From Promethearchaeota archaeon (GTDB taxonomy: Archaea; Asgardarchaeota; Lokiarchaeia; Sigyniarchaeales; SOKP01), in the NCBI GenBank assembly GCA_029838195.1, contig JALGVJ010000017.1, positions 96,001-160,000 on the forward strand: a stretch of 64,000 nucleotides of DNA, given 5' to 3'. Positions 10,104 to 30,253 of this stretch are shown here, piece after piece. The first letter of the stretch is position 1. The number at the start of each line of letters is the position of its first letter. A program made the position numbers and the translations under genes. The notes beneath the pieces are model-generated. The model saw only the letters and a list, made by a program, of their open reading frames with translations. It did not search any database and had not been told where the DNA came from.

Positions 10104-10841
10104 TCATGCTGCTTCTTTAACTATCAACTTAGCTAGTTTTGGAGGCATGGTCCACCCGATATAGAAGATAATCGAGGAGATTAGCAAGATTAACCGCGTG
10201 ATAAATAAGGTTAAGGCTATTAAAGAAATTACGGAATCTAGAATTGCTCCAATTCCGAAAAATAAGAATGCAAGTAAAATTAATTTTGCCTTCCATTGAA
10301 TGACTCGATTGGGAGATTGCATGGATTTTCTTATGAAAATAAGGATAGTAAGCAAGTTTATCGCGATGGTAATCAAGACATAAGAAGCAACGATAAGCTT
10401 AGTTTCACTATCAAATTTTGATACCCGAATGGCTAATAAAGAAGGATCTGTAACCAGGTAATAGAAAAAAATGATAATATACGCAATATTAAAGGCTAAA
10501 TAAATTAATAATATTTTCCATTTGGAATACGGGTATACTAAAAGCGCAAATGAATACATCCATAATAAAGAAGCGATTGGAATCAGACCAAAACTAATGA
10601 AAATGTAGAATGTATCTGATACGTCCACGTTAAAAACTAAAATGGTAATGAAAGCAATTGCTGAACCCCACCAAGGAGAAAATAGAAAAATTAACATTAG
10701 ACCTACCGTTACCAGTTCAATTTGCTTATATGAAAAATATTTCGATACAATTCGAAATCCCAACAAGAAATTTACCGTGAGGGTTAATAATTCAAATGTT
10801 CCGTAAAATAACTCAAGAGATGTAAAACTTTCAATTCCCAT
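10104..10841 (-). CDS. Stand-alone 7TM membrane protein (Loki-type family, paralog 1)
   Basis: 245 aa, seven hydrophobic segments; close paralog of 11485-12222. Confidence 0.85.
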   Translation of the reverse strand: MGIESFTSLELFYGTFELLTLTVNFLLGFRIVSKYFSYKQIELVTVGLMLIFLFSPWWGSAIAFITILVFNVDVSDTFYIFISFGLIPIASLLWMYSFALLVYPYSKWKILLIYLAFNIAYIIIFFYYLVTDPSLLAIRVSKFDSETKLIVASYVLITIAINLLTILIFIRKSMQSPNRVIQWKAKLILLAFLFFGIGAILDSVISLIALTLFITRLILLISSIIFYIGWTMPPKLAKLIVKEAA

Positions 10842-11135
10842 ATCCTAACCTCAATTTTATTAAACATGATTTCATGATATTTAAGATGTTTTAATGCAAA
10901 TTTAAATGTTTCTATCTAAATCGATGATAAAAATTAAAAAATCCTTTCTTTTCATTGGTTATTTTATATAAAAATGGAGTAGTCTTCAATTTATCATGCA
11001 AGGCAAAAGAGAACCCCTTATCCATGGCTTCAAGATTTACATGTAAGAGAACTTGGTTTCATGCATCTTACTTTGTAATTATAGGAATAAAAATTAAAAA
11101 AAATAAAAAACTGAAAGAAGAATGAATATACAAAA

Positions 11136-11156
11136 GATATCTATTGGCGATGGTAA
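11136..11156 (+). pseudogene. 21-nt remnant of the DUF2804 3' end (DIYWRW*)
   Basis: gatatctattggcgatggtaa vs gatatttactggcgatggtaa at 9745-9765; 19/21 identical, both differences synonymous. Confidence 0.7.
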
Positions 11157-11484
11157 TATTTTTTTAACCTTTTTTTCCTTTTCTTTTCATTTTTTCGTTC
11201 ATTTTTCTTTTGTTAATTCTTGCTCATGTTAATCTGAACTTGGGAAATATCTTGAATATCTTAATCCTTTTCTGGTTTTCATTTTTTAATGGTTAAAAAG
11301 ACTTCCGGTTCAGCTTTATAATAATAATAAAAAACCGTGCTTTCTTAATTTAAGTGCTTTTCCTTTTCTCAAACATTCTTTTAAACCCAATAAAGAAAAT
11401 AAGTTAAAGAATTATCCAAATTCACGACTTTCAAGCATGCATGGTGCTTATTTGAATGTTAACTGAAATTAATCGGATTTTTCT

Positions 11485-12222
11485 TCAAGCTTCCTCCTTA
11501 CTCAACAACTTGGCCACTCTTGGAGGCATGATCCATCCAATATAGGAAATGACGGAAGAAATCATCAAAATTAGTCGCGTGAAAAATAATGTAGGGGGTG
11601 TTAAAGAAACGACAGAATCAAGGACCGCTCCGATCACAAAAATGACAAGTGCGAGAAAAATTAATTTCCCTTTCCATTGGATTGTTTTGTCGGGGGAAAG
11701 CATGGATTTTCTCATGAAAATAAATGTTGTTATTAGAGAGATTGCTAACGTGATCATGACATACGATGTCACCACGAGTTCGGTTTCACTATCGATTTTC
11801 GATACTCGAATGACTAATAGAGAAGAATTCGTTATCAAGTAGTAGAAAAAAATAATGACATATGCGAAATTAAAAACCAAATAAATTAAGAAAAGTTTCC
11901 ACTTGGAATGGGGGTATACCAAAAGTGCAAACGAGTACATCCATAATAAAGAAGCGATTGGAATTAACCCATAACTTATGATGATGTAAAATGTATCTGA
12001 TACGTCCACGTTAAAAACTAAAATGGTAATGAATGAAATTGCTGAGCCCCACCATGCAGAATATAAAAAAATTAACATGAGCCCTACAGTTATCAATTCT
12101 TTTCTTTTAATGGTACGATATTTCAATATAATTCGAATCCCCAACAAGAAATTCACCGTTAACATTGCCAATCCAAAACCCCCTTGAAACAATTCAAAAG
12201 AAGTAAAACTCTCAACTCCCAT
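11485..12222 (-). CDS. Stand-alone 7TM membrane protein (paralog 2)
   Basis: 245 aa, collinear with paralog 1 ('WWGSAI.FITILVFNVDVSDTFY', 'LIPIASLLWMYSFALLVYP'). Confidence 0.85.
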   Translation of the reverse strand: MGVESFTSFELFQGGFGLAMLTVNFLLGIRIILKYRTIKRKELITVGLMLIFLYSAWWGSAISFITILVFNVDVSDTFYIIISYGLIPIASLLWMYSFALLVYPHSKWKLFLIYLVFNFAYVIIFFYYLITNSSLLVIRVSKIDSETELVVTSYVMITLAISLITTFIFMRKSMLSPDKTIQWKGKLIFLALVIFVIGAVLDSVVSLTPPTLFFTRLILMISSVISYIGWIMPPRVAKLLSKEEA

Positions 12223-14195: not shown

Positions 14196-14654
14196 ATGGT
14201 AAGGGAAGAAAACACGATTGTAAAAATAAAATTAAAAAATGGCTTCATTTTTTCGAGTGAATTGAATCATGAGCAGGTAAAACAGCTTGTTATTGATGAA
14301 ACCATTGAAAAGGAAGGCAGAGCGCGAGGCCCGGATGCTGCAGAATTATTGGGGCTCGCTATTTTATCTTGTTTGAGCGCCAGTTTTTTATTTTGTTTAC
14401 AGAAAAAAAATCTCACCGTGGACGATTTAGAAACAACAGCAGAAATATCGTTTAAGAAAAATGAGAAAGGATATGTAAGAGTAAAGGCAATTGATGTTAA
14501 ATTAATTCCTAAAAGTACAGATCCGTCCGTATTGCGCAGAATAGAGCAATGCAAGAGAGAAGTGAAAAGTGGACACATGTTTTTTGAAGAAACGTGCATT
14601 ATCACCTCCTCGGTAAGAGAAGGAATAAAGGTGACCGTGGACATGGGTTCATGA
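14196..14654 (+). CDS. OsmC-like family protein
   Basis: 'DE......GP.AAELL..A...C' and 'ETCIITSS'; SD aaggaggtg upstream. Confidence 0.85.
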   Translation: MVREENTIVKIKLKNGFIFSSELNHEQVKQLVIDETIEKEGRARGPDAAELLGLAILSCLSASFLFCLQKKNLTVDDLETTAEISFKKNEKGYVRVKAIDVKLIPKSTDPSVLRRIEQCKREVKSGHMFFEETCIITSSVREGIKVTVDMGS

Positions 14655-14753
14655 AACCTTACATTTTTAAGAAAAAATTTTCATTAAAATGCATGACTCA
14701 AGTCATTTGAGATGGATTCATACTCATATAAGAATAAAATAGATAATATAAAA
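14501..14753. repeat. 253-bp direct repeat, left copy (osmC 3' end plus downstream intergenic DNA)
   Basis: Ungapped match to 30001-30253; 18 mismatches by hand count (~93%). Confidence 0.95.
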
Positions 14754-17249: not shown

Positions 17250-19070
17250 TTAGAAAGATATTTTAAGTTTTTGAATGTCCTTATAGATATCAGGTGTGAG
17301 GGCTTCATAATTATCTCTTTCTGGTAAGAGTACAAATAAAGGATCTTCATGAATATATAAATCGAAACTATCTTTTTTAAGAGAAGATTTCTTGAGTTTA
17401 AAAGTAGATGTGATTTCCAAATCCTTTCTAAATCTTAAGAATAAGGGAATTGCATAACTTGCGAGGTTTTTATTCAAGTGTTCCTTAAAATGATTAAAAT
17501 CAAATTCTTCAAGGTCCGTTTTTAAAACTAAAGTTGCCATTCCTGCTCGTCCATCTGTACCTGGAATTTTCACTCCATATACGCATGAAAATAATACCTC
17601 ATCACATGCATTAAGAATCCCCTCTACTTCAGTAGTAGAAATATTGTGTCCCTTCCAGCGAAAGGTATCTCCTATACGATCCACGAATAAGACGTGATTA
17701 CATCCTTGATCAAGAACAATATCTCCCGTATTTACATACGCATCTCCTTTCTTAAAAGCATTGCGTATGAGTTTACTTTCAGTGTCTTTTTTATTTAGAT
17801 AACCTAAAAATGCAAGCTTATCTGCTTTTGCATTGAATAACAATAGACCCGGTTCATCTTTATCGACCTTTACCAAGAATCCTTCTTCGTCCCTGATAAG
17901 CTCATCATTTTCTGTATCATATTTAACCAATACATAAGGTTTATTACAATATCCAGAGGTTTTATCAAAATTAAAAAAATTGAAGAATCCTCCTCCCAAT
18001 TCGGTGGCAGCATAGTACTCTCCTATAGTTTCAATGGCAAATCTGTCCTTGAATTCATTCCAGATCTCGGGACGTAATCCATTTCCTAAGACAACTCGCA
18101 CTTGATTATCCTTATCCTCTGGGGTTTGCGGAGCATTTACTAAATAACGACATACCTCTCCCACGTAGTTGAAACAAGTAGCCTCATACTTGCGGATATC
18201 ATTCCAAAAATTAATAATGCTAAATCGCCTAGCAAGGGCAAAAGTACAACCTATATTAAGAGGAGGAGCCCAACCACTTATAAGAGGATTAGAATGAAAC
18301 AATGGAAGGGGACAATATAATGTATCTTCTGGTTCTAAATTTGCTATTAACTTTCCAAACAATAGTCCTCCACAGACTATTCTCTGATGAGGGATGGGGA
18401 CTGCTTTTGGTAAACCCGTGGTGCCCGAGGTAAACACATAAGCAAACGTATCAAAAGTCTTGATATTTGCTGTCGTTGGTGGATTTTCCGCTGGGAATGG
18501 CTCCACTTTTTTCATAAGATCTATAAATCCTTCTGGTAATGGAACTTTTCCCTGATCTCTTACAAACAATAAAATTTGTTCCTTGGTCAATCCCATGCTT
18601 GGTTTAACCGCTTCGAATGCTTCATAACAGGTTTCGTCAATTATTATAATTTTTGAAGGAGAAATCGTAAGAGAGTGTATTAGCGCTTCTCCCTGAAAAT
18701 CAGAATTGATAAGGGAAGAAATGACACCGATTTTCGCAAGAGCACTCAAAATAAATAGCAGTTCAAGACGATTTTTCATTAATACCACAGCAACATCCTT
18801 CTTTTTAAGCCCGATGGAGATAAAATAATGAGCATAACGATTAACGCATTCATTGAATTCCTTATAGGTTAATTTTTCATCCTCAAACTTCACTGCAATT
18901 ATGTCTGAAAATTCTCTAGCATTTCTTTCTATTAACGTTCCAATGGACATCTTATTTTCCTTCATTCTAGTCATTATTTCTCGAAGGATGTAGTCATTTT
19001 CAGCATAAAAGTTCCTTAATTTTCTTCGAAATGTTTTCCTGTCAATCTTTAGTTTTATCGATTCTGACAT
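17250..19070 (-). CDS. Long-chain acyl-CoA synthetase, FATP/SLC27 (FadD6-like) family
   Basis: YVFTSGTTGLPKA, 'YVGEVCRYL', 'GNGLRP', 'DRIGDTFRWKG.N.STTEVE', 'DGRAGMA'. Confidence 0.93.
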   Translation of the reverse strand: MSESIKLKIDRKTFRRKLRNFYAENDYILREIMTRMKENKMSIGTLIERNAREFSDIIAVKFEDEKLTYKEFNECVNRYAHYFISIGLKKKDVAVVLMKNRLELLFILSALAKIGVISSLINSDFQGEALIHSLTISPSKIIIIDETCYEAFEAVKPSMGLTKEQILLFVRDQGKVPLPEGFIDLMKKVEPFPAENPPTTANIKTFDTFAYVFTSGTTGLPKAVPIPHQRIVCGGLLFGKLIANLEPEDTLYCPLPLFHSNPLISGWAPPLNIGCTFALARRFSIINFWNDIRKYEATCFNYVGEVCRYLVNAPQTPEDKDNQVRVVLGNGLRPEIWNEFKDRFAIETIGEYYAATELGGGFFNFFNFDKTSGYCNKPYVLVKYDTENDELIRDEEGFLVKVDKDEPGLLLFNAKADKLAFLGYLNKKDTESKLIRNAFKKGDAYVNTGDIVLDQGCNHVLFVDRIGDTFRWKGHNISTTEVEGILNACDEVLFSCVYGVKIPGTDGRAGMATLVLKTDLEEFDFNHFKEHLNKNLASYAIPLFLRFRKDLEITSTFKLKKSSLKKDSFDLYIHEDPLFVLLPERDNYEALTPDIYKDIQKLKISF

Positions 19071-19109
19071 AATTTAGTAATTTAAGACATTCTTAAAAAA
19101 TCTTGCTCA

Positions 19110-19129
19110 GTGGTTATCACTGGTGACAA
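19110..19129. promoter_or_regulatory. Candidate operator between FATP and regulator 1
   Basis: gtggttatcac (reverse complement GTGATAACCAC), extending into ttatcactggtgacaa. Confidence 0.6.
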
Positions 19130-19199
19130 TAACTTTAAATGATGTGGCAGATAATAATTAAGTATTGATTCTTATAAGAATTATTAACAATTAGAGAAG

Positions 19200-19898
19200 A
19201 TGGCTAGTAAAAAATCTTATAAGAAACTTAAACCCGAGGAATGGAAAAATGAAATCCTTGAATTTTTAGAGAATAATCCATCGGGATTTACTATCACCGA
19301 CATTGCTGAAGAGATAAATTCTACACGTACTACTGTTTCAAAATATCTTTCCTTACTGGAGCAAGAGAAAAAAGTATTATCCAAGGAAATTGGCGTTTAT
19401 AAACTCTATTTCAGTGCGGAACGGAGATTTATGGCATTAAATCTTTTTCAAGCTTACTATAAATCACTATTAATGGGCATAAAGGATAAGTTTTCAGATA
19501 AACAAGATTTTAAAGAAATCGGGTATCAAATTTGCGACAACCTTTTTGATTTCTTCTATAACCAATTTCCAAAGAGTATAAGAGATCAAATAAAGAGCTT
19601 TAAAGATTTCTTAAAATTCTTTGGAAAAGTCTATCCCGAATTGGACTTCATTTATTCGGATAATTTGACCATACAAGAAAATGTTAATCTTGAAAATGAA
19701 GAGGCCATTTACCAGTTTAAGAACATTGGAATTTTAGACTTTCCACTTGATTTGGAATACCATTTTTATATCATTTCGGGAATGATTGAGAGAAGTCTAA
19801 CAAAAATCTTTAAAAAAGGGGGAAAAAGAATATATTCTGACATTCAATCCATCGACAAAAAGAATAAAATAGTCACTCTTACAATACAACGTAAGTAG
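19200..19898 (+). CDS. Transcriptional regulator, winged HTH plus V4R-like C-terminal domain (paralog 1)
   Basis: 'ILEFL..NPSG.TITDIA..I.STR.TVSKYL..L...K.IG.YKLY'; 'FKEIG', 'HFYIISG'. Confidence 0.8.
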   Translation: MASKKSYKKLKPEEWKNEILEFLENNPSGFTITDIAEEINSTRTTVSKYLSLLEQEKKVLSKEIGVYKLYFSAERRFMALNLFQAYYKSLLMGIKDKFSDKQDFKEIGYQICDNLFDFFYNQFPKSIRDQIKSFKDFLKFFGKVYPELDFIYSDNLTIQENVNLENEEAIYQFKNIGILDFPLDLEYHFYIISGMIERSLTKIFKKGGKRIYSDIQSIDKKNKIVTLTIQRK

Positions 19899-20029
19899 GT
19901 TATATAATTTTATTTAATTTTAAAGAACCTATCAAGTGTATTTCATAAATACATCTTTATATATCTTCTTTTATTCTACCAAATATAGGATTAGGTAAAA
20001 ACATTAAAATATACTTTTTTGCTTCAATC

Positions 20030-20970
20030 ATCAAACCAAGATACTAAAAGATTGTAGATTCTGAAAATAAAATCAATTCTAGGCTTGATGTAATTAAATC
20101 TACGGAATCATCCCCTAAACGCTTTGATATTCCGCTAGAAGCCCTTTCTTATTTCGAACGAGGTTTTAAGCCATCCTTTTTTAATAAAAAAGTACTGCCT
20201 TATACAATGCGTAGCATGAGAGAGATTAGAAAATCCTTTAAATCAATTAAAAAAACCCTTTAAATCCAAAAACTTCCGTTAATCCAGAATTTATTAGATC
20301 ATTTGAAGAATTTTGTTATAGAATTGGAGCTAGTGCAATCGGATATACCAAAATTCCTCCTGAATTTTTGTTTAAAGACAAGGGAGTAATCTTTGATAAT
20401 GCTATTGTATTTGCTATGGAAATGGATAAAGATAAAATCGCAAAGGCATCCGGTTTAGATGCATTAATCGAAGTTCAAAAAACATATCGAGATTTAGGGA
20501 GGATTGTAAATTCTGCAGCAGAATTTTTACGTAATTGCGGTTATGCCGCTCAAGCCAGTCGTCCTTTGGGAGGAGTTATATTGTATCCCCGATTGGCAAG
20601 ATTGGCAAATCTAGGCTGGCAAGGAAGCCATGGCATGTTGATTACACCTCAATATGGTCCTAGAGTTCGTTTAGCAGCGGTTTTCACGAGCATCTCAAAT
20701 ATACATCTCTCTAGAAACAATACACATGCCTGGATCGAGTCGTATTGTAAAATATGTGGCATTTATATAAAAAAATGTCCTGTAAATGCCATATATTCAG
20801 AACCAATTAAAAAAGATAACGGAGTTATTACACATATAGATGTAAATAAGTGCTTTCCCTATTTCCTGAAAATTATGGATGTTCTGTTTGCATGGATCGT
20901 TGTCAATTCAACCGAATTGGTTATAACAAATTAAAGGCACGCATGATGGAAATAAATAAAAAAAATTAAA
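20030..20970 (+). pseudogene. QueG/reductive-dehalogenase-family 4Fe-4S protein, frameshifted
   Basis: 'LARLANLGWQGSHGMLITPQYGPRVRLAAVFT', CKICGIYIKKCP (one Cys lost); second motif GCSVCMDRC in another frame; 5' part broken near 20260 and 20325. Confidence 0.8.
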
Positions 20971-21156
20971 TTTTTTTTTATTATGATCATTAAGATCAGT
21001 TTAAATCTTCTTCTTTTAATAAAGATTATAAGTAAAAATTCAAATTACAATTATTCAAAAAAATGAAATTTTAACAAATAAAAAACTTTATTCTGATTTG
21101 AAATAATACCAATTTTATTCTATTAGATAAAAAAATAAGGGAAAGTAACGATATAT

Positions 21157-22674
21157 TTAGGTCAAGGCTATTCTTTTCGGATATATGCTCTGGGCTTGAA
21201 GATTCTCGTGGAGTAGACGTTCAATCATTTGATTACGTAATTTCGGTTTAGATTCCCATAAATTCTGTAATTCATTAGGATCATCTTTTCTATCAAACAA
21301 ATCTCCATAACCATTTAATCCCGCATAGACAGTTAATTTATGTTTTTCAGTGATTAAATGCCTTAAACGCACATTTATACCAAAATTAAACAATTCTTCA
21401 TCATGTTCAACCAAACATGCTTCCCTAATAGTTTCTTGTGAATCTTGTAAAATCGGTGTCATATCACGCCCTTGCATTCCATAAGGCTGTTCTTTTCGCT
21501 TAATTCCCACCAGCTCCAAAATAGTTTTTGGAATGTCGATTGAGCTAACTAAAGAATCCGTGTGAGTTCCCTTAGTCATTCCGGGCACTTTCCATATTAA
21601 AGGAACTCTTAAAATTCCATCAAAAGGACAAGGTCCTTTTAAAATTAATCCATGGTCACCCATCATGTCCCCATGATCACTGGTATAAATTACCATAGTG
21701 TTTTTATCCAATCCAAATTTTTCCAATGCCGCTAAGATCTGACCCACTCCATAATCCACCATTGCAACTGATCCATAAGTTCTAGCTATGAATTCCTTAA
21801 CCACCTTCTCCGGCTCAGTCCGTAATACCATTCCCCGAAAAAAGGCATTGTCCAAAAGATCTCCCAAAAAAGGATGATTTTTTAAATTTTCTTGATCCTT
21901 ATAACTTTCGGGAAGTTCAATCTTATTTGGGTCATACATATCCCAGTACTTGCCAGGCGGACTGACAGGGTGATGCGGATCTGGAAAAGAACAATGGAGA
22001 TAAAATGGTTTGTCTCCATGCTCACCGTTGACGTGATCTTTCAGATAGGATATAGTTCGTTCGGTTATATAGGTTGTAGGATATAGTTCCTCCGGTATGG
22101 GTGATTCACAATGCGTTTTGTTAAAAAATGCTTTTGCTCTTTTCCTAATAATGGGTAAATATTGTGGTGCCCTTTCTTCTAGCCAATCAAGATAATGCCC
22201 ACAACAAACATCTCCATGGCCCAAAACCATCTCAACATCTTCAAACCCATAATAAGGACGGGGAAGATTCTTGTCCATTTTATATCGCCATTTTTCGGAG
22301 AACCAATGATTAACGCTCTCGTAAGAATAGGCGGATTTTTCAAATTTTTGAGCCCAAAATTGTAAGTGCATCTTTCCAATAGCATGAGTATGATATCCAT
22401 TATTATATAAAATTTGTGAAATAGTAGGCACGTTCTCCGGCAAGTTAATGCCATTACTCCTTACGCCGTGCATGTTTGGATATAATCCTGTTAGCAAGCT
22501 TGCTCTGTTTGGAGAGCATATAGGATTAGCACAATAAGCTGAAGTAAAATGCACTCCTTGATCTGCTAATTTGTCCAGATTGGGAGTCTTCAAGACAGAA
22601 TTTCCCGCACAACTCATGTGGTCAGCTCGATGCTGATCCGTCATGATAAATAACACGTTCATTTTCTCGCTCAT
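21157..22674 (-). CDS. Formylglycine-dependent sulfatase (S1), paralog 1
   Basis: 'NVLFIMTDQHR', CSPNRASLLTG, GKMH, 'DPHHP', 'TSDHG'. Confidence 0.93.
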   Translation of the reverse strand: MSEKMNVLFIMTDQHRADHMSCAGNSVLKTPNLDKLADQGVHFTSAYCANPICSPNRASLLTGLYPNMHGVRSNGINLPENVPTISQILYNNGYHTHAIGKMHLQFWAQKFEKSAYSYESVNHWFSEKWRYKMDKNLPRPYYGFEDVEMVLGHGDVCCGHYLDWLEERAPQYLPIIRKRAKAFFNKTHCESPIPEELYPTTYITERTISYLKDHVNGEHGDKPFYLHCSFPDPHHPVSPPGKYWDMYDPNKIELPESYKDQENLKNHPFLGDLLDNAFFRGMVLRTEPEKVVKEFIARTYGSVAMVDYGVGQILAALEKFGLDKNTMVIYTSDHGDMMGDHGLILKGPCPFDGILRVPLIWKVPGMTKGTHTDSLVSSIDIPKTILELVGIKRKEQPYGMQGRDMTPILQDSQETIREACLVEHDEELFNFGINVRLRHLITEKHKLTVYAGLNGYGDLFDRKDDPNELQNLWESKPKLRNQMIERLLHENLQAQSIYPKRIALT

Positions 22675-22694
22675 TTTTAGTTAAGCACCTTTTT

Positions 22695-23798
22695 TCAATT
22701 CCGCTTTCTTTTTTTTAAACCACGTTTATAGTTATAATCATACAATCGCATGTGTTTCGGATCCATAGATTGAAACACTTTTTCTGCTTCCTCAGGAGGT
22801 AAAATTAATATTTCTCCATTTTCTTTTTGAATTACGCAGCCAGAGTTCGTTAGGATTTTATAATTTTTAGCCGTTTCTTTGGGATCTCCAAAGCAAATAT
22901 TACTGCAGTTTCCACATGAGATTTGAATATCATAACCAAGATCAACTGATACGTTAAATCCTTTGGAGCCATCGGGAATCTGTGGCCATTTTCCTTTTGT
23001 CATAGAAGAATGTACTAACAATCGAGTTACCTCATCCTCATCTTCGGGATATTCAAATCTGCCGGGACTCCACGTAGAAAACTTTCCGCTGTGATGCAAG
23101 CCAGTTAATCCCATACATCCAATGATACACCTTCTAATATCAATGCGTTTCGCATAAGAATATTCACGTCCTCCCATCTTAAAGGTAAAAGCCTCTTTAT
23201 CAGAAAACATTTTCAGAGGACAGACCCGTGCGCATAATTTGCAATCATTACAAAATGATTCTTCTTCGGGGATGGGGTCCGACGGTTCCAGTACCGCATC
23301 TGTCACCACTGCTCCTAATAGAATAGTAGTACCATAGTCTTTAATTCCGACATTGCCACTCCATCCAAATGAGCCGACACCAGATGCCACGGCCACATAA
23401 CGGAGGCATAATTCTGGTACAACTTTTAATCTCCAACCCGGAATATCTTCCCTAAATTTATTATTCGGGAAGAATGCCGCCCCTTTAAACCCCTTTTTTT
23501 GTAGCAATACAACCAATTCTTTTTCTATTCTCCAAATCCGTATATATAGGTCAAACATATGTTTTTCAAAATTAGACCTACCATTCGGTAATTTCTTAGC
23601 TAAATAAGCTCTAATGAGTTTTTTGTCTAAAGGCATGGCGAAGCTAATAGCTGATTTAGCTTCGGGCAGCTTATAGGTTATATCCGTGATATCCGGAACT
23701 CCCGCAAGAGTTTGCTGATTAGCAAAACCAACTCTAATTGCACCTCTTTCACGTAAAAATTGTTCTATTTCCTTGTTTAAACTAATGGTTCTCACCAA
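22695..23798 (-). CDS. QueG/RdhA-superfamily cobalamin/4Fe-4S reductase, paralog A
   Basis: 'GA..VGFA', 'LPEAKSAISF', 'AVASGVGSFGWSGN', CNDCKLCARVCP, C...C, CGNCSNIC; no Tat signal. Confidence 0.85.
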   Translation of the reverse strand: MVRTISLNKEIEQFLRERGAIRVGFANQQTLAGVPDITDITYKLPEAKSAISFAMPLDKKLIRAYLAKKLPNGRSNFEKHMFDLYIRIWRIEKELVVLLQKKGFKGAAFFPNNKFREDIPGWRLKVVPELCLRYVAVASGVGSFGWSGNVGIKDYGTTILLGAVVTDAVLEPSDPIPEEESFCNDCKLCARVCPLKMFSDKEAFTFKMGGREYSYAKRIDIRRCIIGCMGLTGLHHSGKFSTWSPGRFEYPEDEDEVTRLLVHSSMTKGKWPQIPDGSKGFNVSVDLGYDIQISCGNCSNICFGDPKETAKNYKILTNSGCVIQKENGEILILPPEEAEKVFQSMDPKHMRLYDYNYKRGLKKRKRN

Positions 23799-23891
23799 TT
23801 CTATAATTTTACCTTGAAGTTTAAATTAAAGATTATTATTATAGAGATTAAATATATATAGGAATCGAATCTATTTATAAATTAATGTTTG

Positions 23892-23911
23892 GAGATTATC
23901 ACCAGTGAATA
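23892..23911. promoter_or_regulatory. Candidate operator between the two divergent QueG/RdhA-like genes
   Basis: gagattatcac (reverse complement GTGATAATCTC), extending into ttatcaccagtgaata. Confidence 0.6.
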
Positions 23912-23930
23912 AGGAAATATAGAATTTAAA

Positions 23931-25079
23931 ATGACTGAAAATAACTCTATTTCATTAGAAGATCAAATCAAGAGTTTAGCACTAAAAGAAGGAGCAGATT
24001 TAGTTGGAATTTGTGAAGCTGCTCCGCTAAGCAATAAGATTTTTTCAGATGCGAGTTTTTTACTAAAAGATGCTCAATCTATTATAAGCATCGCGATATC
24101 TCAAGACCAAAAAAGCATTGAAAAATATCTTTCAAAGCAAGATCGAGCAGATTTTTGCATTAAGGCTGATGAGATTACACAAAAATTACGAGCGATTGGT
24201 GAGAAAATTAAGATCTTATTAGAACAAGAAGGATTTAATGCTTTTAACTGCAATATTAACTTCGATTATAGAAATGCCAATCGCAATCCGACAACCTATA
24301 AAGCATTGGATACCCTTGTTTCCCTCATAGACAAGGAAAAATCGGGTGCGGAATTATCTCATAGTGAGAAGAAAACCTTGAGTGCATTAAAGAAGATGCT
24401 TAAAATCGGGATAAGAAAAAATCCCATTGATTTTGTTCCTGAATTCTCTCACCGTTGTGCTGCTGAAGCTGCAGGATTAGGAAGAATAGGGTGGAGCGGA
24501 AATTTGATAACGGAAAAATATGGGGCACGAGTCATGCTGACTTCCGTGATAACGAATGCCACACTCATGCCGGATAAACCCTTAGAAAAAAATCCTTGTC
24601 TAATGTGCAAATTATGCGAAAAAGCATGTCAAGGAGGTTTTTTTGATAAAAAGGAAGAAGAGTGCATTCAAATTGCTAATATGGAAGAGAAAATTGGTAA
24701 AAGAAAATCTTATTCATATTGTGCGGTGATTTGTGGGGGATTTATTGGTCAAAATCGATTTAAAGAGTGGAGCACCTGGAGCCCTTATCGATTTAAAAGT
24801 TATGGTCTTGAAACCATCGATCAATTACCCAATGATGATTCTGTCGATGATATTTACTTGGATATTATGGAAAGGGCGATTCTAGAAGGTGGTAGGAAAG
24901 CTCAAAATGTCTTGAAATTAAATAGAACAATTCTGGTAGGATTACATAACAAGCCAAAAGAAGATTGGATCCCTACGTGTGCCAATTGCCAAATCATCTG
25001 CGGTCCCACCATGCAAGAAAAGAAGAAAAGCCTTAATTTACTCATAAATGGGGGCAATATTGAAGATGGAGATATATGA
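23931..25079 (+). CDS. QueG/RdhA-superfamily cobalamin/4Fe-4S reductase, paralog B
   Basis: 'GADLVGI', 'FSHRCAAEAAGLGRIGWSGNLITEKYGARV', CLMCKLCEKAC, CANCQIIC. Confidence 0.85.
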   Translation: MTENNSISLEDQIKSLALKEGADLVGICEAAPLSNKIFSDASFLLKDAQSIISIAISQDQKSIEKYLSKQDRADFCIKADEITQKLRAIGEKIKILLEQEGFNAFNCNINFDYRNANRNPTTYKALDTLVSLIDKEKSGAELSHSEKKTLSALKKMLKIGIRKNPIDFVPEFSHRCAAEAAGLGRIGWSGNLITEKYGARVMLTSVITNATLMPDKPLEKNPCLMCKLCEKACQGGFFDKKEEECIQIANMEEKIGKRKSYSYCAVICGGFIGQNRFKEWSTWSPYRFKSYGLETIDQLPNDDSVDDIYLDIMERAILEGGRKAQNVLKLNRTILVGLHNKPKEDWIPTCANCQIICGPTMQEKKKSLNLLINGGNIEDGDI

Positions 25080-25206
25080 TTTAATTTATAGCGTAATCTT
25101 GAAGTTAATCATAAAATCACATGTCGCTATTCCCTGGTTGGTATCTATTCGAAAAATTTAAAAATTATTTATTAGTAATAATCTTTAAAAATTAAAAAGT
25201 GATCAA

Positions 25207-26499
25207 ATGTCAGGGCGAGAAGGCAGTTCAAAAAAATTGACAAGGTCTTATTTTCTTTATATGGTATTTATTCTAATTCTGGTCCAGGTTTTAGATTCCT
25301 ATACTACTTCCTTTCCTACACTCATTCCCTCTCGTATCATAGAAGAATTTTTATCCGGATATCCTGAAAACATTGCTTTATCCTTATTTACACTCAGTAC
25401 GGGGATAGGTACTATGGGCATGTACATTTGTGCATTGAACACGTATTTTTCTGATAAATTTGGAAGGAAAGTGATGCTAGTTGTAACGATTTTCGGAATG
25501 GCTGGAATCCTTTTTTTAATGAATTTCAGTACCAGCATTATAGATTTCACGATATATTTATTTTTTCTATGGTTCTTCACACGGTCGGATATATGGATGA
25601 TTTTTATCAGTGAAGAGGCCCCGAAAGAGAAGCGAGCTTTCTGGATGCAAGTTATTTTAATTGGAGGAACCGTGGGTGCTATCCTTGGTCCTATATTGCG
25701 TTCTGTATACATAACTGAGACGTCCTCAAATTGGAGAGGTCTTACCTATTTTCCGATTGTCTTTGGAGTCATTTTAGGAGTAATCGCTTTACTGACGCTA
25801 AAAGAACCGAAAATCTTTCAAGAAGATGTGGGAAACAAGTTATCCGGCGGAACTTCAATTTCTTTAAGAAAAAATGTGAAATCCTTGCTAAAAGCCCCGA
25901 ATAAAAAAGAATTAATTGCCCTCTTAATAATGAGTTTTGTTTTAGGAACTAATTCCATCTTTAGAAATTTAATGGAGCCTTATATCTTTGGGGAAGGAAT
26001 TTTAAATGAAGTACAAATTAGTTTAGTAATTCTCGGAGCCACTCTTGCTGTTTATATAGCATTTCTCTTGATTGGTGTCCTTGCAGACAGAATTGGCAGG
26101 ATTCCGCTTCTATATCTTGGTTCAGTTTTAGTACCCATTTCACAAGTTTTATTTGTTATCGGGAGCACGATCCCTGAAATTGCTTTATTTAGCGGATTAT
26201 TGTTCGGAGGACTTTCAGCCTTAGGGTATTGGTTGTCATGGATTGTAGTTTCCATGGTGATTCTGGAAGTCGTCCCCACGGACTCCAGAGGGACAGGAGC
26301 GGGCCTAAAATCTCTTTTCGGGGCAGCAGGAATAACTTTAGGTTTCTTTTTTACGAGCTTGTTTACCTATTTATTTGGACTAGGTTTGGCCGTTATCATC
26401 ATTAGCTTATCTGTTGGTTTAAACATTCCGTTAATTTATTTCTACGTAAAAGAAACTAAAGGAACGGATCTAAGAGATGTTTATGGACTAAAATTTTAA
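25207..26499 (+). CDS. MFS transporter
   Basis: 12 TM; 'SDKFGRK', 'ADRIGR', 'SEEAP.EKR', 'EVVPTDSRG', 'KETKG'. Confidence 0.9.
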   Translation: MSGREGSSKKLTRSYFLYMVFILILVQVLDSYTTSFPTLIPSRIIEEFLSGYPENIALSLFTLSTGIGTMGMYICALNTYFSDKFGRKVMLVVTIFGMAGILFLMNFSTSIIDFTIYLFFLWFFTRSDIWMIFISEEAPKEKRAFWMQVILIGGTVGAILGPILRSVYITETSSNWRGLTYFPIVFGVILGVIALLTLKEPKIFQEDVGNKLSGGTSISLRKNVKSLLKAPNKKELIALLIMSFVLGTNSIFRNLMEPYIFGEGILNEVQISLVILGATLAVYIAFLLIGVLADRIGRIPLLYLGSVLVPISQVLFVIGSTIPEIALFSGLLFGGLSALGYWLSWIVVSMVILEVVPTDSRGTGAGLKSLFGAAGITLGFFFTSLFTYLFGLGLAVIIISLSVGLNIPLIYFYVKETKGTDLRDVYGLKF

Positions 26500-26557
26500 T
26501 TATAAAAATTTTTTTTTTAATTGAGAAATGGGAGTCTATTTTTAATTGACGGATAAA

Positions 26558-26800
26558 TTACATTTTTAAAAATATTGATACAATATCACCGTCCGTTAAA
26601 GGCTGGTCCCCATCTCTAAATTTCTGACCAGGATGTTTTGCCGTATCTCCCCATATCATTGCGAAACGGAATTGATTTATAAAATCCTTGTGCAAGCGCT
26701 TGCAAAGCGATTTGAGAGTGTCTCCCTCACGCATTATAATTGGCTCTTTCATATCAGCTTCCTCTTTGGGTGGTTTTAAATACATTTTTATTAAGTTCAG
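26558..26800 (-). pseudogene. Isolated C-terminal TGS domain of a DRG/OBG-family GTPase
   Basis: 'LNLIKMYLKPP....EP.I...G.T...C..LHKDF..QFRFA.IWG..AKHPGQ...L.DGDIV'; no G-domain upstream. Confidence 0.75.
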
Positions 26801-26872
26801 TTTAGGTCCAAATCAACAACCCATCCCCGCAACTGTTAAAGAAGTTAAAGAAGTTGTAGTATTAGATTTTTC
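26800..26872 (+). pseudogene. Possible internal fragment of an FKBP/SlyD-type PPIase
   Basis: GPNQQPIPATVKEVKEVVVLDF resembles the SlyD segment before NHPLAG, which is absent here. Confidence 0.4.
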
Positions 26873-26945
26873 AAAAGGGATATTCTTATTAGTTTTATAA
26901 AGTAAGAATAAATGTTAATTAATCGCATTTTCAGTGAATCTTAAA

Positions 26946-28451
26946 TTAGTTATAAGCACAGCGTTCTGGGTATTTAGGTTGAAGTTTAATGATTTCTCTA
27001 AGAAGTTGGTTGGTTAATTGGTTTTTTAATTCTTTATTCTCCCCCCATAAATTATTAACTTCTTGGGGTTCATTTTCATAGTCATAGATATCTCCAAAAG
27101 TATCCAAACCATCATATATGGACAAACGATGTTGTTCGGTTATCAAGGTTCGAACCCGGAATCTTTTGTCCTTCCAAATCTCTTCATCGTGTTCTATTAA
27201 TACCTTGTCCCGCACCTTTTTATTCGGATTTTTTAAGATTGATGAAACATCCTCTCCTTGCATTCGTTTGAGGTATTTTTTCTTACCTAATCCTAATAGG
27301 TTCAAGATGGTAACTGGTAAGTCCACGGTACTTATTAGGGAATTAGAAATTCCCGTGTGGGTTAACCCGGGTATTTTCCATAATAAAGGCATATTAATCA
27401 CGCTCCGATAATGAGCAGGACCCTTTAAAACTAAACCATGATCGCCACAATAATCTCCATGATCGCTTGTATAAATTACCATCGTGTTTTTTGAAAGCCC
27501 TGTTTTTTCCAAGGCGTTTAAAATTTTTCCTACCGCATCATCAATCATGGCAATGGAACCATAAGTATAGGCCGTAAATTTTTTTGCTGTTTGCTCATCC
27601 ACTTTCTGAGGAAGAAGATGGACAAACCGAGAATCTTTTAAATGTTCTCCTAAAAAGGGATGATTTAACAAGTTCTCAGCATCTTCAAAATTATCTGGAA
27701 GCTTAATATCTTCGGGATTGTACAAGATCCTATACTTGCCGGGAGGACAAACGGGATGATGTGGGTCATTAAAAGAGCAATGCAAAAAGAAAGGTTTATC
27801 CCCATTATTGCCCTCAGCATATCCTTCGAGGTATTCAACCGTCCGATCGGCAATATAAGAAGTCGGATATAATTCTTCTGATAGGTCTGTATCATATGTC
27901 AAATCATTTATTACTCGTATATTTTTTTTCAACCATTCGACAAATTGAGGATCTCTCTCTTTTATCCATTCAATATAATGACCAGTACAAACCACTCCAT
28001 GCCCCGTGGTAAGCGCAGAACACTCTTCAAATCCATAATATGGATTCGGAAAATTTTTAGAATTTAATGTACCGTACAACCATTCAAAAAGATTTTCATA
28101 TGATATAACCCCTTTCTTTTGAGGATTTGCATAAAAATTAAAATGCATTTTCCCCACACTACAAGTGTGATATCCGTTTTCTCTTAAGATTTCCGAGAGA
28201 GTTGGAATGGTTGGATCCAAATTAATTCCATTTGAGCGTGTTTTGTGAACACTTGGATACATCCCGGTAAAGAAACTCGCTCTATTAGGCATGCAAATAG
28301 GAGTGGCACTAAAATATTTAGTAAAAATCATACCATCCTTGGCAATACTGTCAATATTTGGCGTCTTTAAAAAAGAGTGCCCTCTGCAACTTAAATGATC
28401 AGCACGCTGCTGGTCTGTTATTATGAATAACACGTTCATTTTCTCGCTCAT
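26946..28451 (-). CDS. Formylglycine-dependent sulfatase (S1), paralog 2
   Basis: 'NVLFIITDQQR', CMPNRASFFTG, GKMH, 'DPHHP', 'TSDHG'; same N-terminus MSEKMNVLFI as paralog 1. Confidence 0.93.
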   Translation of the reverse strand: MSEKMNVLFIITDQQRADHLSCRGHSFLKTPNIDSIAKDGMIFTKYFSATPICMPNRASFFTGMYPSVHKTRSNGINLDPTIPTLSEILRENGYHTCSVGKMHFNFYANPQKKGVISYENLFEWLYGTLNSKNFPNPYYGFEECSALTTGHGVVCTGHYIEWIKERDPQFVEWLKKNIRVINDLTYDTDLSEELYPTSYIADRTVEYLEGYAEGNNGDKPFFLHCSFNDPHHPVCPPGKYRILYNPEDIKLPDNFEDAENLLNHPFLGEHLKDSRFVHLLPQKVDEQTAKKFTAYTYGSIAMIDDAVGKILNALEKTGLSKNTMVIYTSDHGDYCGDHGLVLKGPAHYRSVINMPLLWKIPGLTHTGISNSLISTVDLPVTILNLLGLGKKKYLKRMQGEDVSSILKNPNKKVRDKVLIEHDEEIWKDKRFRVRTLITEQHRLSIYDGLDTFGDIYDYENEPQEVNNLWGENKELKNQLTNQLLREIIKLQPKYPERCAYN

Positions 28452-28552
28452 TTTTATTAGGAAAATTGTTTTCTATTCTTTTTACATTTAAAGGAGAATA
28501 TGAAATTCTTGTCAATTAGAAAACTTCATAATTAATAAGTTTTTATACGGTA

Positions 28553-28619
28553 GTGATAATCATCATTAGCATAACACGAAAAATATGATGGTTAAGACTC
28601 TATTATATGTGATAATCAC
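28553..28619. promoter_or_regulatory. Two candidate operators between sulfatase 2 and regulator 2
   Basis: GTGATAATCAT at 28553-28563 and perfect GTGAT-A-ATCAC at 28609-28619. Confidence 0.6.
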
Positions 28620-28680
28620 CATTATTTTTTAGAAATAGAAGATCTCCATATAAATGGAATTGTACTAAATAGGTATTATC

Positions 28681-29370
28681 TTGACTAGTTCAACAGAAAA
28701 AAAAGGGAAAGGAACCAATTGGAAAAAAGAAATCCTTGAATTTCTTAACAAGAATCCTTCAGGATATACCATCACAGATATTGCAAAAGGAATTAAATCC
28801 ACCCGGATTACTGTCTCGAAGTATCTTTCCTTGCTGAAGAATGAGAAAAAGGTGATCTCCAAAGATATTGGCGTATACAAACTTTATTTTAGCAAAGATA
28901 GAAAGTTTATCGACTTGGGATTGGTTCGGTCTTTCTACAAAGCTTTTTTAAGCGGAATAAAATCTAAAATAACTCGTGTACAAGAATATAAGGAGTTAGG
29001 CCATTTTATTTCTGATTCCATGTTTAAATACATCATTGAAGTGTATCCCGAAAGTTTGAGAAAACAAATCACATCGTTCAAGGATTTCTTGCAATTCTTT
29101 AGCAAAATGTATCCATATCATGACTTTCTTTATACTAATGACCTGATTATAGAGGAGAATTTGGACCTTGCGAATGAAAAGGGTGTTTACAAGTTAAGTA
29201 ATGTTGAAATTCTCGATATATCGGACAATTTCAAACTTCATTTTTACATATTATCAGGAATTTTTGAACACACGCTTTCCAAGATTTTTAGACGGAAACC
29301 AATTGTCTGTAATATTGAAAAGATTGATAAAAAAAAGAAAGAAGTCGTGATCTCGCTACAACGAAAGTAA
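28681..29370 (+). CDS. Transcriptional regulator, winged HTH plus V4R-like domain (paralog 2)
   Basis: Collinear with 19200-19898; near-identical HTH (STRITVSKYLSLL vs STRTTVSKYLSLL); TTG start. Confidence 0.8.
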   Translation: MTSSTEKKGKGTNWKKEILEFLNKNPSGYTITDIAKGIKSTRITVSKYLSLLKNEKKVISKDIGVYKLYFSKDRKFIDLGLVRSFYKAFLSGIKSKITRVQEYKELGHFISDSMFKYIIEVYPESLRKQITSFKDFLQFFSKMYPYHDFLYTNDLIIEENLDLANEKGVYKLSNVEILDISDNFKLHFYILSGIFEHTLSKIFRRKPIVCNIEKIDKKKKEVVISLQRK

Positions 29371-30000
29371 TTAATTTCTAATTAAATCAAAAAGAATCTT
29401 AATGGTAAGTTTTAGCCCTAAATTTATTATATTATAAAAAAAGATTCCACATCCTTTTTATAATGAAGGCTGGAACTCTGTCCTATAATATCTGATATTT
29501 GGACATTATCTCCTTCTAAAAGGCTAAGGAGCAATAAGAATTATAATGTTTGGAATCCAATATATTTTCTTTTTAAAAAATCTTTTTTTAGTCTATTTCA
29601 ATTTTGAATATGGAAAAATCATAGTTTTTCTAAAATTCCCATTATGAACATCACTACTTCTTTTGTCTGTCAATAAAATTTCGGTTTTTAATCTTTTACA
29701 TAATGATTACAGAGAAAAAAACTTAAATAAAATTTTCTTACAAGAAGCGAAATGCTTATCAGAATTCCCATAATACTGGAAATGAAAAAAGGAATTAAAG
29801 AAAAAATTCCTTGCGAACTAAAGTTCGCTTCTAATCACTAAAATTTTTTCCTTTAATTATAAGATGGATTATATCAAGGGAAAAAAAAAATAAAAAATAA
29901 AATTTATTTGGTGATTGAAGCTTAAATTAGATTATAAAATTATATTCACTCTAGATCTTCTAACTCCTCTTGCATGAGTCCAAGAACTTCTCCAAAGGCA

Positions 30001-30253
30001 ATTAATTCCTAAAAGTACAGATCCGTCCGTATTGCGAAGAATAGAGCAATGAAAAAGAGAAATGAAAAAGAGACACATGTTTTTTGAAGAAACGTGCATT
30101 ATTACCTCTTCGGTAAGAGAAGGAATAAAGTTGAACGTGGACATGGGTTCATGAAACCTTACATTTTTAAGAAAAAATTTTCATTAAAATACATGACTCA
30201 TGTCATTTGAGATAAGTTCATGCTCATATAAGAATTAAATAGATAATATAAAA
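30001..30253. repeat. 253-bp direct repeat, right copy (osmC 3' pseudogene fragment)
   Basis: Offset exactly 15,500 nt from the left copy; Cys codon TGC changed to TGA at 30050-30052. Confidence 0.95.

Follow-up and report, generated by a model that had tools for sequence, protein, structure and literature searches.

The window, the whole 64,000-nucleotide (nt) stretch of DNA analysed here, comes from an Asgard archaeon and contains two sulfatase genes close to two genes for reductases of the RdhA/QueG superfamily, here named RedA and RedB, together with an acyl-coenzyme A (CoA) synthetase, a transporter of the major facilitator superfamily (MFS) and two paralogous regulators (Table 1). RedA and RedB belong to an uncharacterised clade of a known superfamily, and their association with sulfatases is undescribed but conserved; this is the novel part of the finding. 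We read the locus, which spans 12 kb and probably regulates itself, as an accessory island for the catabolism of imported sulfate esters whose parent natural products are hydrophobic or aromatic and carry a carboxylate; it is probably induced by a ligand, and we regard this reading as about evenly balanced between right and wrong. The window corresponds to C35:96001-160000 of a 4.5-Mb metagenome-assembled genome (MAG), 96.6% complete with about 33% GC, and the top matches of its proteins come from MAGs of Promethearchaeota, Hodarchaeota and Lokiarchaeia. In the literature that we searched on Asgard archaea, sulfatases and RdhA/QueG, the linkage is not described. PF13486 is present in the reductive dehalogenases described by Manoharan et al. 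2019, which are a different family, and a Pfam search gave no PF13486 match in RedA or RedB.

RedA and RedB are distant paralogs (26% identity, E 2e-32). By sequence, the similarity of RedA to QueG and PceA is limited to some 65 core residues and the first CxxCxxCxxxC motif, and the best PDB match of RedA is QueG 5d6s (E 2.8e-5 across 63 residues). Scores against the curated QueG family (TIGR00276, cut-off 200 bits) are 30.3 bits for RedA, 36.6 for RedB and 32.3 for RedC, a decayed third reductase described below; those against the RdhA family (TIGR02486, cut-off 160 bits) are 36.1, 29.4 and 47.6 bits. In fact, none of the superfamily paralogs in the host genome reaches either cut-off. An AlphaFold model of RedA was built from 38 homologs (pLDDT, the predicted local distance difference test, 89). 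Foldseek placed it in the superfamily with a probability of 1.0 (E 9e-9), and VIA-align gave Z scores of 15.9 for PceA, 15.7 for NpRdhA and the RDH complex and 15.5 for QueG; outside the superfamily the scores were 9.6 for the B12 chaperone MMACHC and about 6 for nitroreductases. Judged from the model, RedA sits firmly in the RdhA/QueG superfamily, equidistant from its characterised branches.

We then placed the two proteins in a tree of 45 rows (IQ-TREE, LG+C20, with SH-aLRT support), whose references were five annotated QueG, two respiratory-type RdhA, BhbA and one NpRdhA-type protein; a FastTree tree of 132 rows was in agreement. QueG formed a clade with support 100 and RdhA a clade with support 95, both leaving RedA and RedB outside. 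These two and their relatives made up a third clade (support 98), with the RedB subclade (support 100) nested within it. Ten Cys residues are invariant in the RedA clade, in the arrangement CxxCxxCxxxC, CxxxC, CxxCxxxC and one further; those of RedA include C183/186/189/193, C224/C228 and C295/298/302, and RedB has the same pattern. Both proteins carry the two predicted 4Fe-4S binding motifs that mark the superfamily. No twin-arginine motif of a Tat leader is present at either N-terminus, where the fold begins directly, and no small membrane open reading frame (ORF) resembling the RdhB anchor adjoins the two genes. The data support RedA and RedB as predicted cytoplasmic proteins of the RdhA/QueG fold. 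An earlier reading of the stretch from its letters alone (the sequence-only reading) had called them B12 enzymes: the superfamily fold and homology stand, and the use of a cobamide by RedA and RedB is itself suggested by that fold and homology only. CobS was found in the host genome.

The clade is not confined to this genome. When 1.84 billion cluster representatives (clusters of 50% identity) were searched with a profile, 112 clusters reached E <= 1e-30 and 478 reached E <= 1e-10, and among the phylum's genomes the RedA clade occurs in 9 of 151. Moreover, there are tandem RED-RED fusion proteins of about 760-800 amino acids (aa), including P0185, P0194, P0201, P0205 and about 25 more, some of them triple, which fit RedA and RedB acting as a pair. 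Five bacterial MAGs with RedA homologs (the genomes of L041, L046, L052, L061 and L064; loci L081-L096) have 5-13 divergent superfamily paralogs each and not one protein above the QueG or RdhA cut-off; in these paralogs the superfamily shows a large radiation among anaerobes that is still unexplored. A complex prediction for RedA with sulfatase 1 scored 0.00, which is no verdict and counts neither as support for binding nor as evidence against it.

Sulfatases 1 and 2 are 50% identical. Both lie above the PF00884 cut-off and carry C-x-P-x-R together with the catalytic Asp, Lys and His by which S1 formylglycine sulfatases are recognised, so that both are predicted members of this class. The catalytic set D13, C53, P55, R57, K101, H103, D333, H334 and K346 is invariant in 22 members of the subfamily, and no signal peptide was found in sulfatases 1 and 2 or in any Asgard member. 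From these features the two enzymes look active and cytoplasmic. Their closest solved relatives are the arylsulfatases SpAS1 (4upi, about 180 bits) and SpAS2, along with the phosphonate-monoester-hydrolase (PMH) group, 4UPI being identified as SpAS1 via PMC5870055, and they fall below every NCBIfam equivalog cut-off. The host genome has 21 sulfatase matches and a single anSME (TIGR03942 413 bits against a cut-off of 349; C9:25206-26276), no FGE was found in it, and the family matches include no maturase gene inside the island. The subfamily is present in 22 of the 151 genomes of the phylum. In relatives (L120, L123, L129 and L140) a TauE/SafE-type anion exporter lies directly beside leaderless sulfatases of the same subfamily, and this fits export of sulfate freed in the cytoplasm.

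We scanned the species genomes of GTDB and obtained 80 loci with RedA-clade genes, 42 archaeal and 38 other, taken with flanks of up to 10 kb and with neighbours counted within 5 kb. An S1 sulfatase is a neighbour in 15 of the 42 archaeal loci, where about 1.5 would be expected at the density of sulfatases in the same genomes, and in 4 of the 38 others (about 1.2 expected); a second superfamily member is a neighbour in 13/42 and 11/38, respectively. Co-oriented triads of RedA, sulfatase and RedB with gaps of about 46-77 nt were found in L025, L029 and L030 and in similar form in L008, and in these four the RedB ortholog is placed after the sulfatase. According to the FastTree tree, the reductases adjacent to sulfatases span four superfamily clades. 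The sequence-only reading had proposed such a neighbourhood survey and would have fallen if the linkage were absent from all other genomes; it is present in many.

Other neighbours recur as well. A 370-aa protein that joins a winged helix-turn-helix (wHTH) to two [4Fe-4S] ferredoxin clusters is found at 15 loci, DUF169 at 15 and flavodoxin at 9, followed by alpha/beta hydrolases, hydrolases of the metallo-beta-lactamase (MBL) fold, AMP-ligases and aldehyde:ferredoxin oxidoreductase; a tryptophanase/tyrosine-phenol-lyase occurs in four loci and TetR regulators in bacterial ones. The low-potential electron carriers beside the reductases argue for a genuine reductive enzyme. Pfam and NCBIfam searches gave nothing for the recurrent neighbours c21 (240 aa), c14 (108 aa), c18 (152 aa) and c28 (window 10104-12222), and the literature on DUF169 yielded nothing functional.

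The same genome contains two related clusters. First, a second module at C26:20000-36000 (L098) comprises an enoyl-CoA hydratase, a 313-aa RED-like protein that represents a fourth superfamily clade, an MFS_2 transporter, two sulfatases 48-50% identical to sulfatase 1, an AMP-ligase and a 307-aa protein with no Pfam or NCBIfam match. Second, a third paralog of the regulators (40% identical) heads an alkylsulfatase cluster at C34:44000-56000 (L100), with a type III alkylsulfatase (MBL + Alkyl_sulf_dimr), a wHTH+2x[4Fe-4S] protein, an MBL hydrolase and an alpha/beta hydrolase. The families of this cluster flank RedA-clade genes in other genomes, and the cluster itself is without a reductase. The regulator family is thus linked to sulfate-ester genes from two classes of enzymes that are unrelated to each other.

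The regulators, each of 230 aa, were first read as twin wHTH-V4R proteins. The wHTH and a V4R/Bet3-type fold are borne out by the model, while a Pfam match to V4R is not: PF02830 gave no match with the whole regulators (E 0.01) or with their isolated C-terminal domains (E 10). The model of regulator 1 (pLDDT 82) shows an N-terminal winged helix and a C-terminal alpha/beta domain. In Foldseek the top match of this putative sensor was palmitate-bound TRAPPC3/Bet3 6aq3 (E 2e-5, TM 0.66 on the target), and the other matches comprised many Bet3 and H-NOX chains and the Thorarchaeota TRAPPC3 7yh3; V4R belongs to the Bet3/H-NOX fold class. The nearest language-model neighbours of the regulators include ArsR-V4R families, with scores of 0.90-0.91. 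Members of this regulator family occur with RedA at other loci too: in L007, L008 and L011 one is placed divergently to RedA, and in L001 and L031 one adjoins the module. As a side observation, wHTH-fused Bet3-fold proteins could pass wrongly as eukaryotic signature proteins in Asgard surveys.

Sites similar to GTGATAATCAC, with at most one mismatch, number 6 in the window against 0.93 expected, and four of them are within the three divergent spacers. In the 4.5-Mb genome ATCACYRGTGA has four sites, and the only two intergenic ones are those of the synthetase/regulator 1 and RedA/RedB (23898) spacers. A shared operator in the divergent promoters is likely on these counts.

Taken as an inducible catabolic module, the locus as first read is partly supported, by the linkage, the non-QueG identity of the reductases, the regulator fold, the promoter motif and the second module; the coupling between reductase and sulfatase is facultative. 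The proposed working of the island is as follows. The MFS-type transporter would import the substrate, and the two cytoplasmic sulfatases, of the formylglycine (Cys) S1 type and matured by the single anSME of the genome, would take off its sulfate. A second substituent in the same family of substrates, either a halide or an oxygen function, would next be cleaved reductively by RedA and RedB, probably paired, in a two-electron reaction fed by low-potential carriers such as flavodoxin or ferredoxin. The acyl-CoA synthetase would channel the product into CoA-dependent breakdown, and the twin regulators would bind the inverted-repeat operator in the divergent promoters and sense a hydrophobic ligand. 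We infer the order of the steps, the type of reaction, the induction and every substrate. Chlorosulfolipids and halophenyl sulfates are guesses. Sulfated phenolic acids or sulfated lipids are compatible with the arylsulfatase-like relatives, AMP-ligases, enoyl-CoA hydratase and aromatic amino-acid lyases, which do not discriminate between the two. Going further, RedA and RedB may be a third functional branch of the superfamily with a chemistry of its own, a flavodoxin-fed pair that might act on phenolic or lipid substrates by reductive C-O cleavage or by dehydroxylation, sulfate being a possible leaving group; with the cytoplasmic sulfatases they would form a route to marine organosulfates in Asgard archaea and some anaerobic bacteria. 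This extension we hold to be rather improbable.

Several observations weigh against the catabolic island. With regard to the reductases, the RedA/RedB clade is biochemically uncharacterised throughout, and two of its invariant Cys are in excess of the eight required for two clusters. With regard to linkage, 27 of the 42 archaeal and 34 of the 38 other RedA loci have no sulfatase within 5 kb, and only 4 of the 29 other sulfatases of the subfamily have a reductase within 1.5 kb, others having a TauE/SafE exporter, an SDR or an NMO-type reductase as neighbours. Of 25 genomes in the organism's own family, 20 have the sulfatase subfamily and only 6 the RedA clade. The window is without a flavodoxin, a DUF169 protein or a ferredoxin-domain protein. 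Other loci do not share the FATP-type ligase of this one and have only distant, generic AMP-ligases. Finally, the third spacer, between sulfatase 2 and regulator 2, has the core of the motif only, and among the orthologous loci a clear copy is seen only in L031 and partial ones in L007 and L008, the motif being absent from L001, L011 and the C34 locus.

Three alternatives are unlikely to a similar degree. In one of them, RedA and RedB would serve the sulfatases as redox partners that generate, repair or re-activate formylglycine or switch the enzyme on. The 20-nt operon junction, the conserved sandwiches of a sulfatase between two reductases, the island without a maturase gene and the ratio of 21 sulfatase matches to one anSME would all suit this role. 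However, formylglycine formation is an oxidation, and the fold and the flavodoxin/ferredoxin neighbours indicate reduction; sulfatases of the subfamily are mostly without an adjoining reductase; and the canonical anSME, above its curated cut-off, together with the many RedA loci that have no sulfatase, in archaea and above all in bacteria, weighs against RedA and RedB as maturases. We therefore give this idea little weight.

It is just as unlikely, in our view, that the reductases cleave the sulfate ester reductively or use the still-sulfated substrate, in a corrinoid-dependent C-O cleavage with sulfate in a halide-like part, and that the sulfatases take other esters or residual substrate. QueG performs a reductive C-O cleavage in the same fold and RdhA expels anionic leaving groups, the RedA/RedB clade is distinct from both, and its members are found repeatedly with sulfate-ester genes, among them type III alkylsulfatase clusters with a regulator of the family seen here. 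Nevertheless, we know of no precedent for the reductive cleavage of a sulfate ester, the hydrolytic sulfatase encoded in the operon would be a competitor for the substrate, and many members of the clade are in loci without any sulfate-related gene.

The third alternative, again with a small chance of being right, is incidental co-location, in which recombination built a mosaic of independent accessory genes and the reductases do something unrelated in the cell. A direct repeat of 254 nt, whose copies at window 14500-14753 and 30000-30253 share 93% identity, consists of the 3' end of osmC (14196-14654) and about 100 nt beyond, and its copies bracket a 15.5-kb stretch with a GH28-like gene and the entire sulfatase-reductase cluster. 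No integrase was seen among the ORFs annotated here. An acquired or mobile island fits the patchy RedA clade among the relatives, and together with the two gene remnants in the island these features speak for a mosaic. However, the adjacency is about ten-fold over expectation, in several Asgard lineages and a few bacteria and with different reductase clades; moreover, the genome has a second module of the same parts, and the promoter regions have a motif in common.

The weakest explanation, true epoxyqueuosine reductases, is almost certainly wrong, even though public annotation pipelines use this name, JGI and NCBI label many homologs "epoxyqueuosine reductase QueG" and RedA has the QueG fold: the QueG references form a separate clade without RedA and RedB, both score far below the curated cut-off, each genome has several superfamily paralogs, archaea use archaeosine and not queuosine, and QueA was not found. 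QueA makes the substrate of QueG. The search for QueA (PF02547) was negative in the 96.6%-complete genome and detected 9 bacterial controls; because QueA is absent, epoxyqueuosine is not made in the host and a QueG role is excluded. On this point the sequence-only reading was right. The QueG annotation in Asgard genomes is almost certainly wrong, and its correction drops a false call of tRNA modification and reveals a large uncharacterised enzyme clade.

Returning to the catabolic island, its parts resemble known systems and differ from each of them. RdhA (PceA 4uqu/8q4h, NpRdhA 4ras, BhbA) is like RedA in its fold (Z 15.7-15.9 over about 210-240 aligned residues), the conserved core segment by CxxCxxCxxxC and the split second cluster motif, and NpRdhA and BhbA are also soluble, lack a Tat signal or RdhB anchor and have a catabolic gene context. 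Unlike RdhA, RedA belongs to a separate clade, has a long insert with the invariant CxxxC and an S-T-W-S-P segment and has no fused reductase domain; the partners of its clade are sulfatases, DUF169, flavodoxin and the wHTH-ferredoxin protein, and any halide chemistry is putative. QueG (5d08, 5d6s, 5t8y) shares with RedA the fold (Z 14.8-15.5), a length of about 370 aa, the cytoplasmic location and two Fe-S motifs, whereas RedA has a sulfatase as its operon partner instead of tRNA-modification genes. Like SpAS1 4upi, RlPMH 2vqr and choline sulfatase 6fny, the sulfatases here combine PF00884, CxPxR and the full catalytic set; unlike the SpAS1 group, they are strictly leaderless in Asgard archaea and often stand beside RdhA/QueG-like genes or a TauE exporter. 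The regulators have the winged HTH and Bet3-type fold of ArsR-V4R, Bet3 and H-NOX sensors and differ in having no PF02830 match.

All nine genes of the sequence-only reading were recovered in place by ORFs and family searches, arranged as three divergent pairs (Table 1). The pairs are acyl-CoA synthetase/regulator 1, RedA/RedB and sulfatase 2/regulator 2, with spacers at 19071-19199 (129 nt), 23799-23930 (132 nt) and 28452-28680 (229 nt), respectively. The gap of 20 nt between RedA and sulfatase 1 is also confirmed, the stop codon of RedA ending at 22695 and sulfatase 1 starting at 22674. A distance of 127 nt separates RedB from the MFS gene, and their co-transcription is thus hypothetical.

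Table 1. Features of the sulfatase-reductase locus (window positions)
Feature	Position	Strand	Basis or remarks
FATP/FadD6-type long-chain acyl-CoA synthetase	17250..19070	-	NF006134 676.9 bits (cut-off 625), residues 9-604; PF00501, PF13193
Candidate operator GTGGTTATCACTGGTGA	19110..19126	.	Inside acyl-CoA synthetase/regulator 1 spacer
Regulator 1	19200..19898	+	N-terminal winged HTH (HTH_11/HTH_IclR); predicted C-terminal Bet3/H-NOX (V4R-type) fold
RedC, decayed RdhA-like reductase remnant	20254..20934	+	tblastn against C84 paralog; TIGR02486 47.6 bits
Sulfatase 1	21157..22674	-	PF00884 183 bits, motif CSPNR; predicted Cys-type S1, arylsulfatase/PMH-like group
Reductase A (RedA), 367 aa	22695..23798	-	RdhA/QueG superfamily by fold model and tree
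Candidate operator GAGATTATCACCAGTGA	23892..23908	.	Inside RedA/RedB spacer
Reductase B (RedB), 382 aa	23931..25079	+	Distant RedA paralog, same clade
MFS transporter	25207..26499	+	PF07690 86 bits
Sulfatase 2	26946..28451	-	PF00884 170 bits, motif CMPNR; paralog of sulfatase 1
Two copies of GTGATAATCA(C/T) core	28553..28619	.	Inside sulfatase 2/regulator 2 spacer
Regulator 2	28681..29370	+	Paralog of regulator 1, 54% identity

The third, decayed reductase claimed earlier is real, with homology at 20254-20871. In tblastn this RedC remnant aligns with 40% identity to an intact paralog of 308 aa on contig C84, over residues 69-275 of the latter. A start codon is missing from the homologous N-terminus of RedC, a Cys of the first cluster motif is changed to Tyr (CKICGIYIKKCP) and the second cluster motif is lost. 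RedC belongs to a clade different from that of RedA and RedB and is RdhA-like, its intact relatives (the C84 paralog, L008 and L014) being sister to true RdhA with support 95. On the 3' side of sulfatase 2, a 75-aa ORF at 26558-26785 (-) has, by eye, a likeness to the C-terminal TGS/beta-grasp part of DRG/Obg-type GTPases. We take it for a probable gene fragment, the second mark of decay in the island. Outside the cluster there are tandem 245-aa paralogs at 10104-10841 and 11485-12222 (-) without a family match in Pfam or NCBIfam, and homologs of them are found at L008:16358-17074, the end of a large sulfatase-reductase cluster, and near the sulfatase-reductase cluster of L033.

Asgard physiology is known from very few cultures, and sulfate esters are abundant in sediments. 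A conserved, regulated organosulfate module would give a concrete and testable class of substrates for the enrichment and cultivation of Asgard archaea, and would tie these organisms to the cycling of sulfur and carbon in sediments. To our knowledge, only two types of reaction are known for the RdhA/QueG fold; a third type, if true, would be of interest to B12 chemistry and bioremediation.

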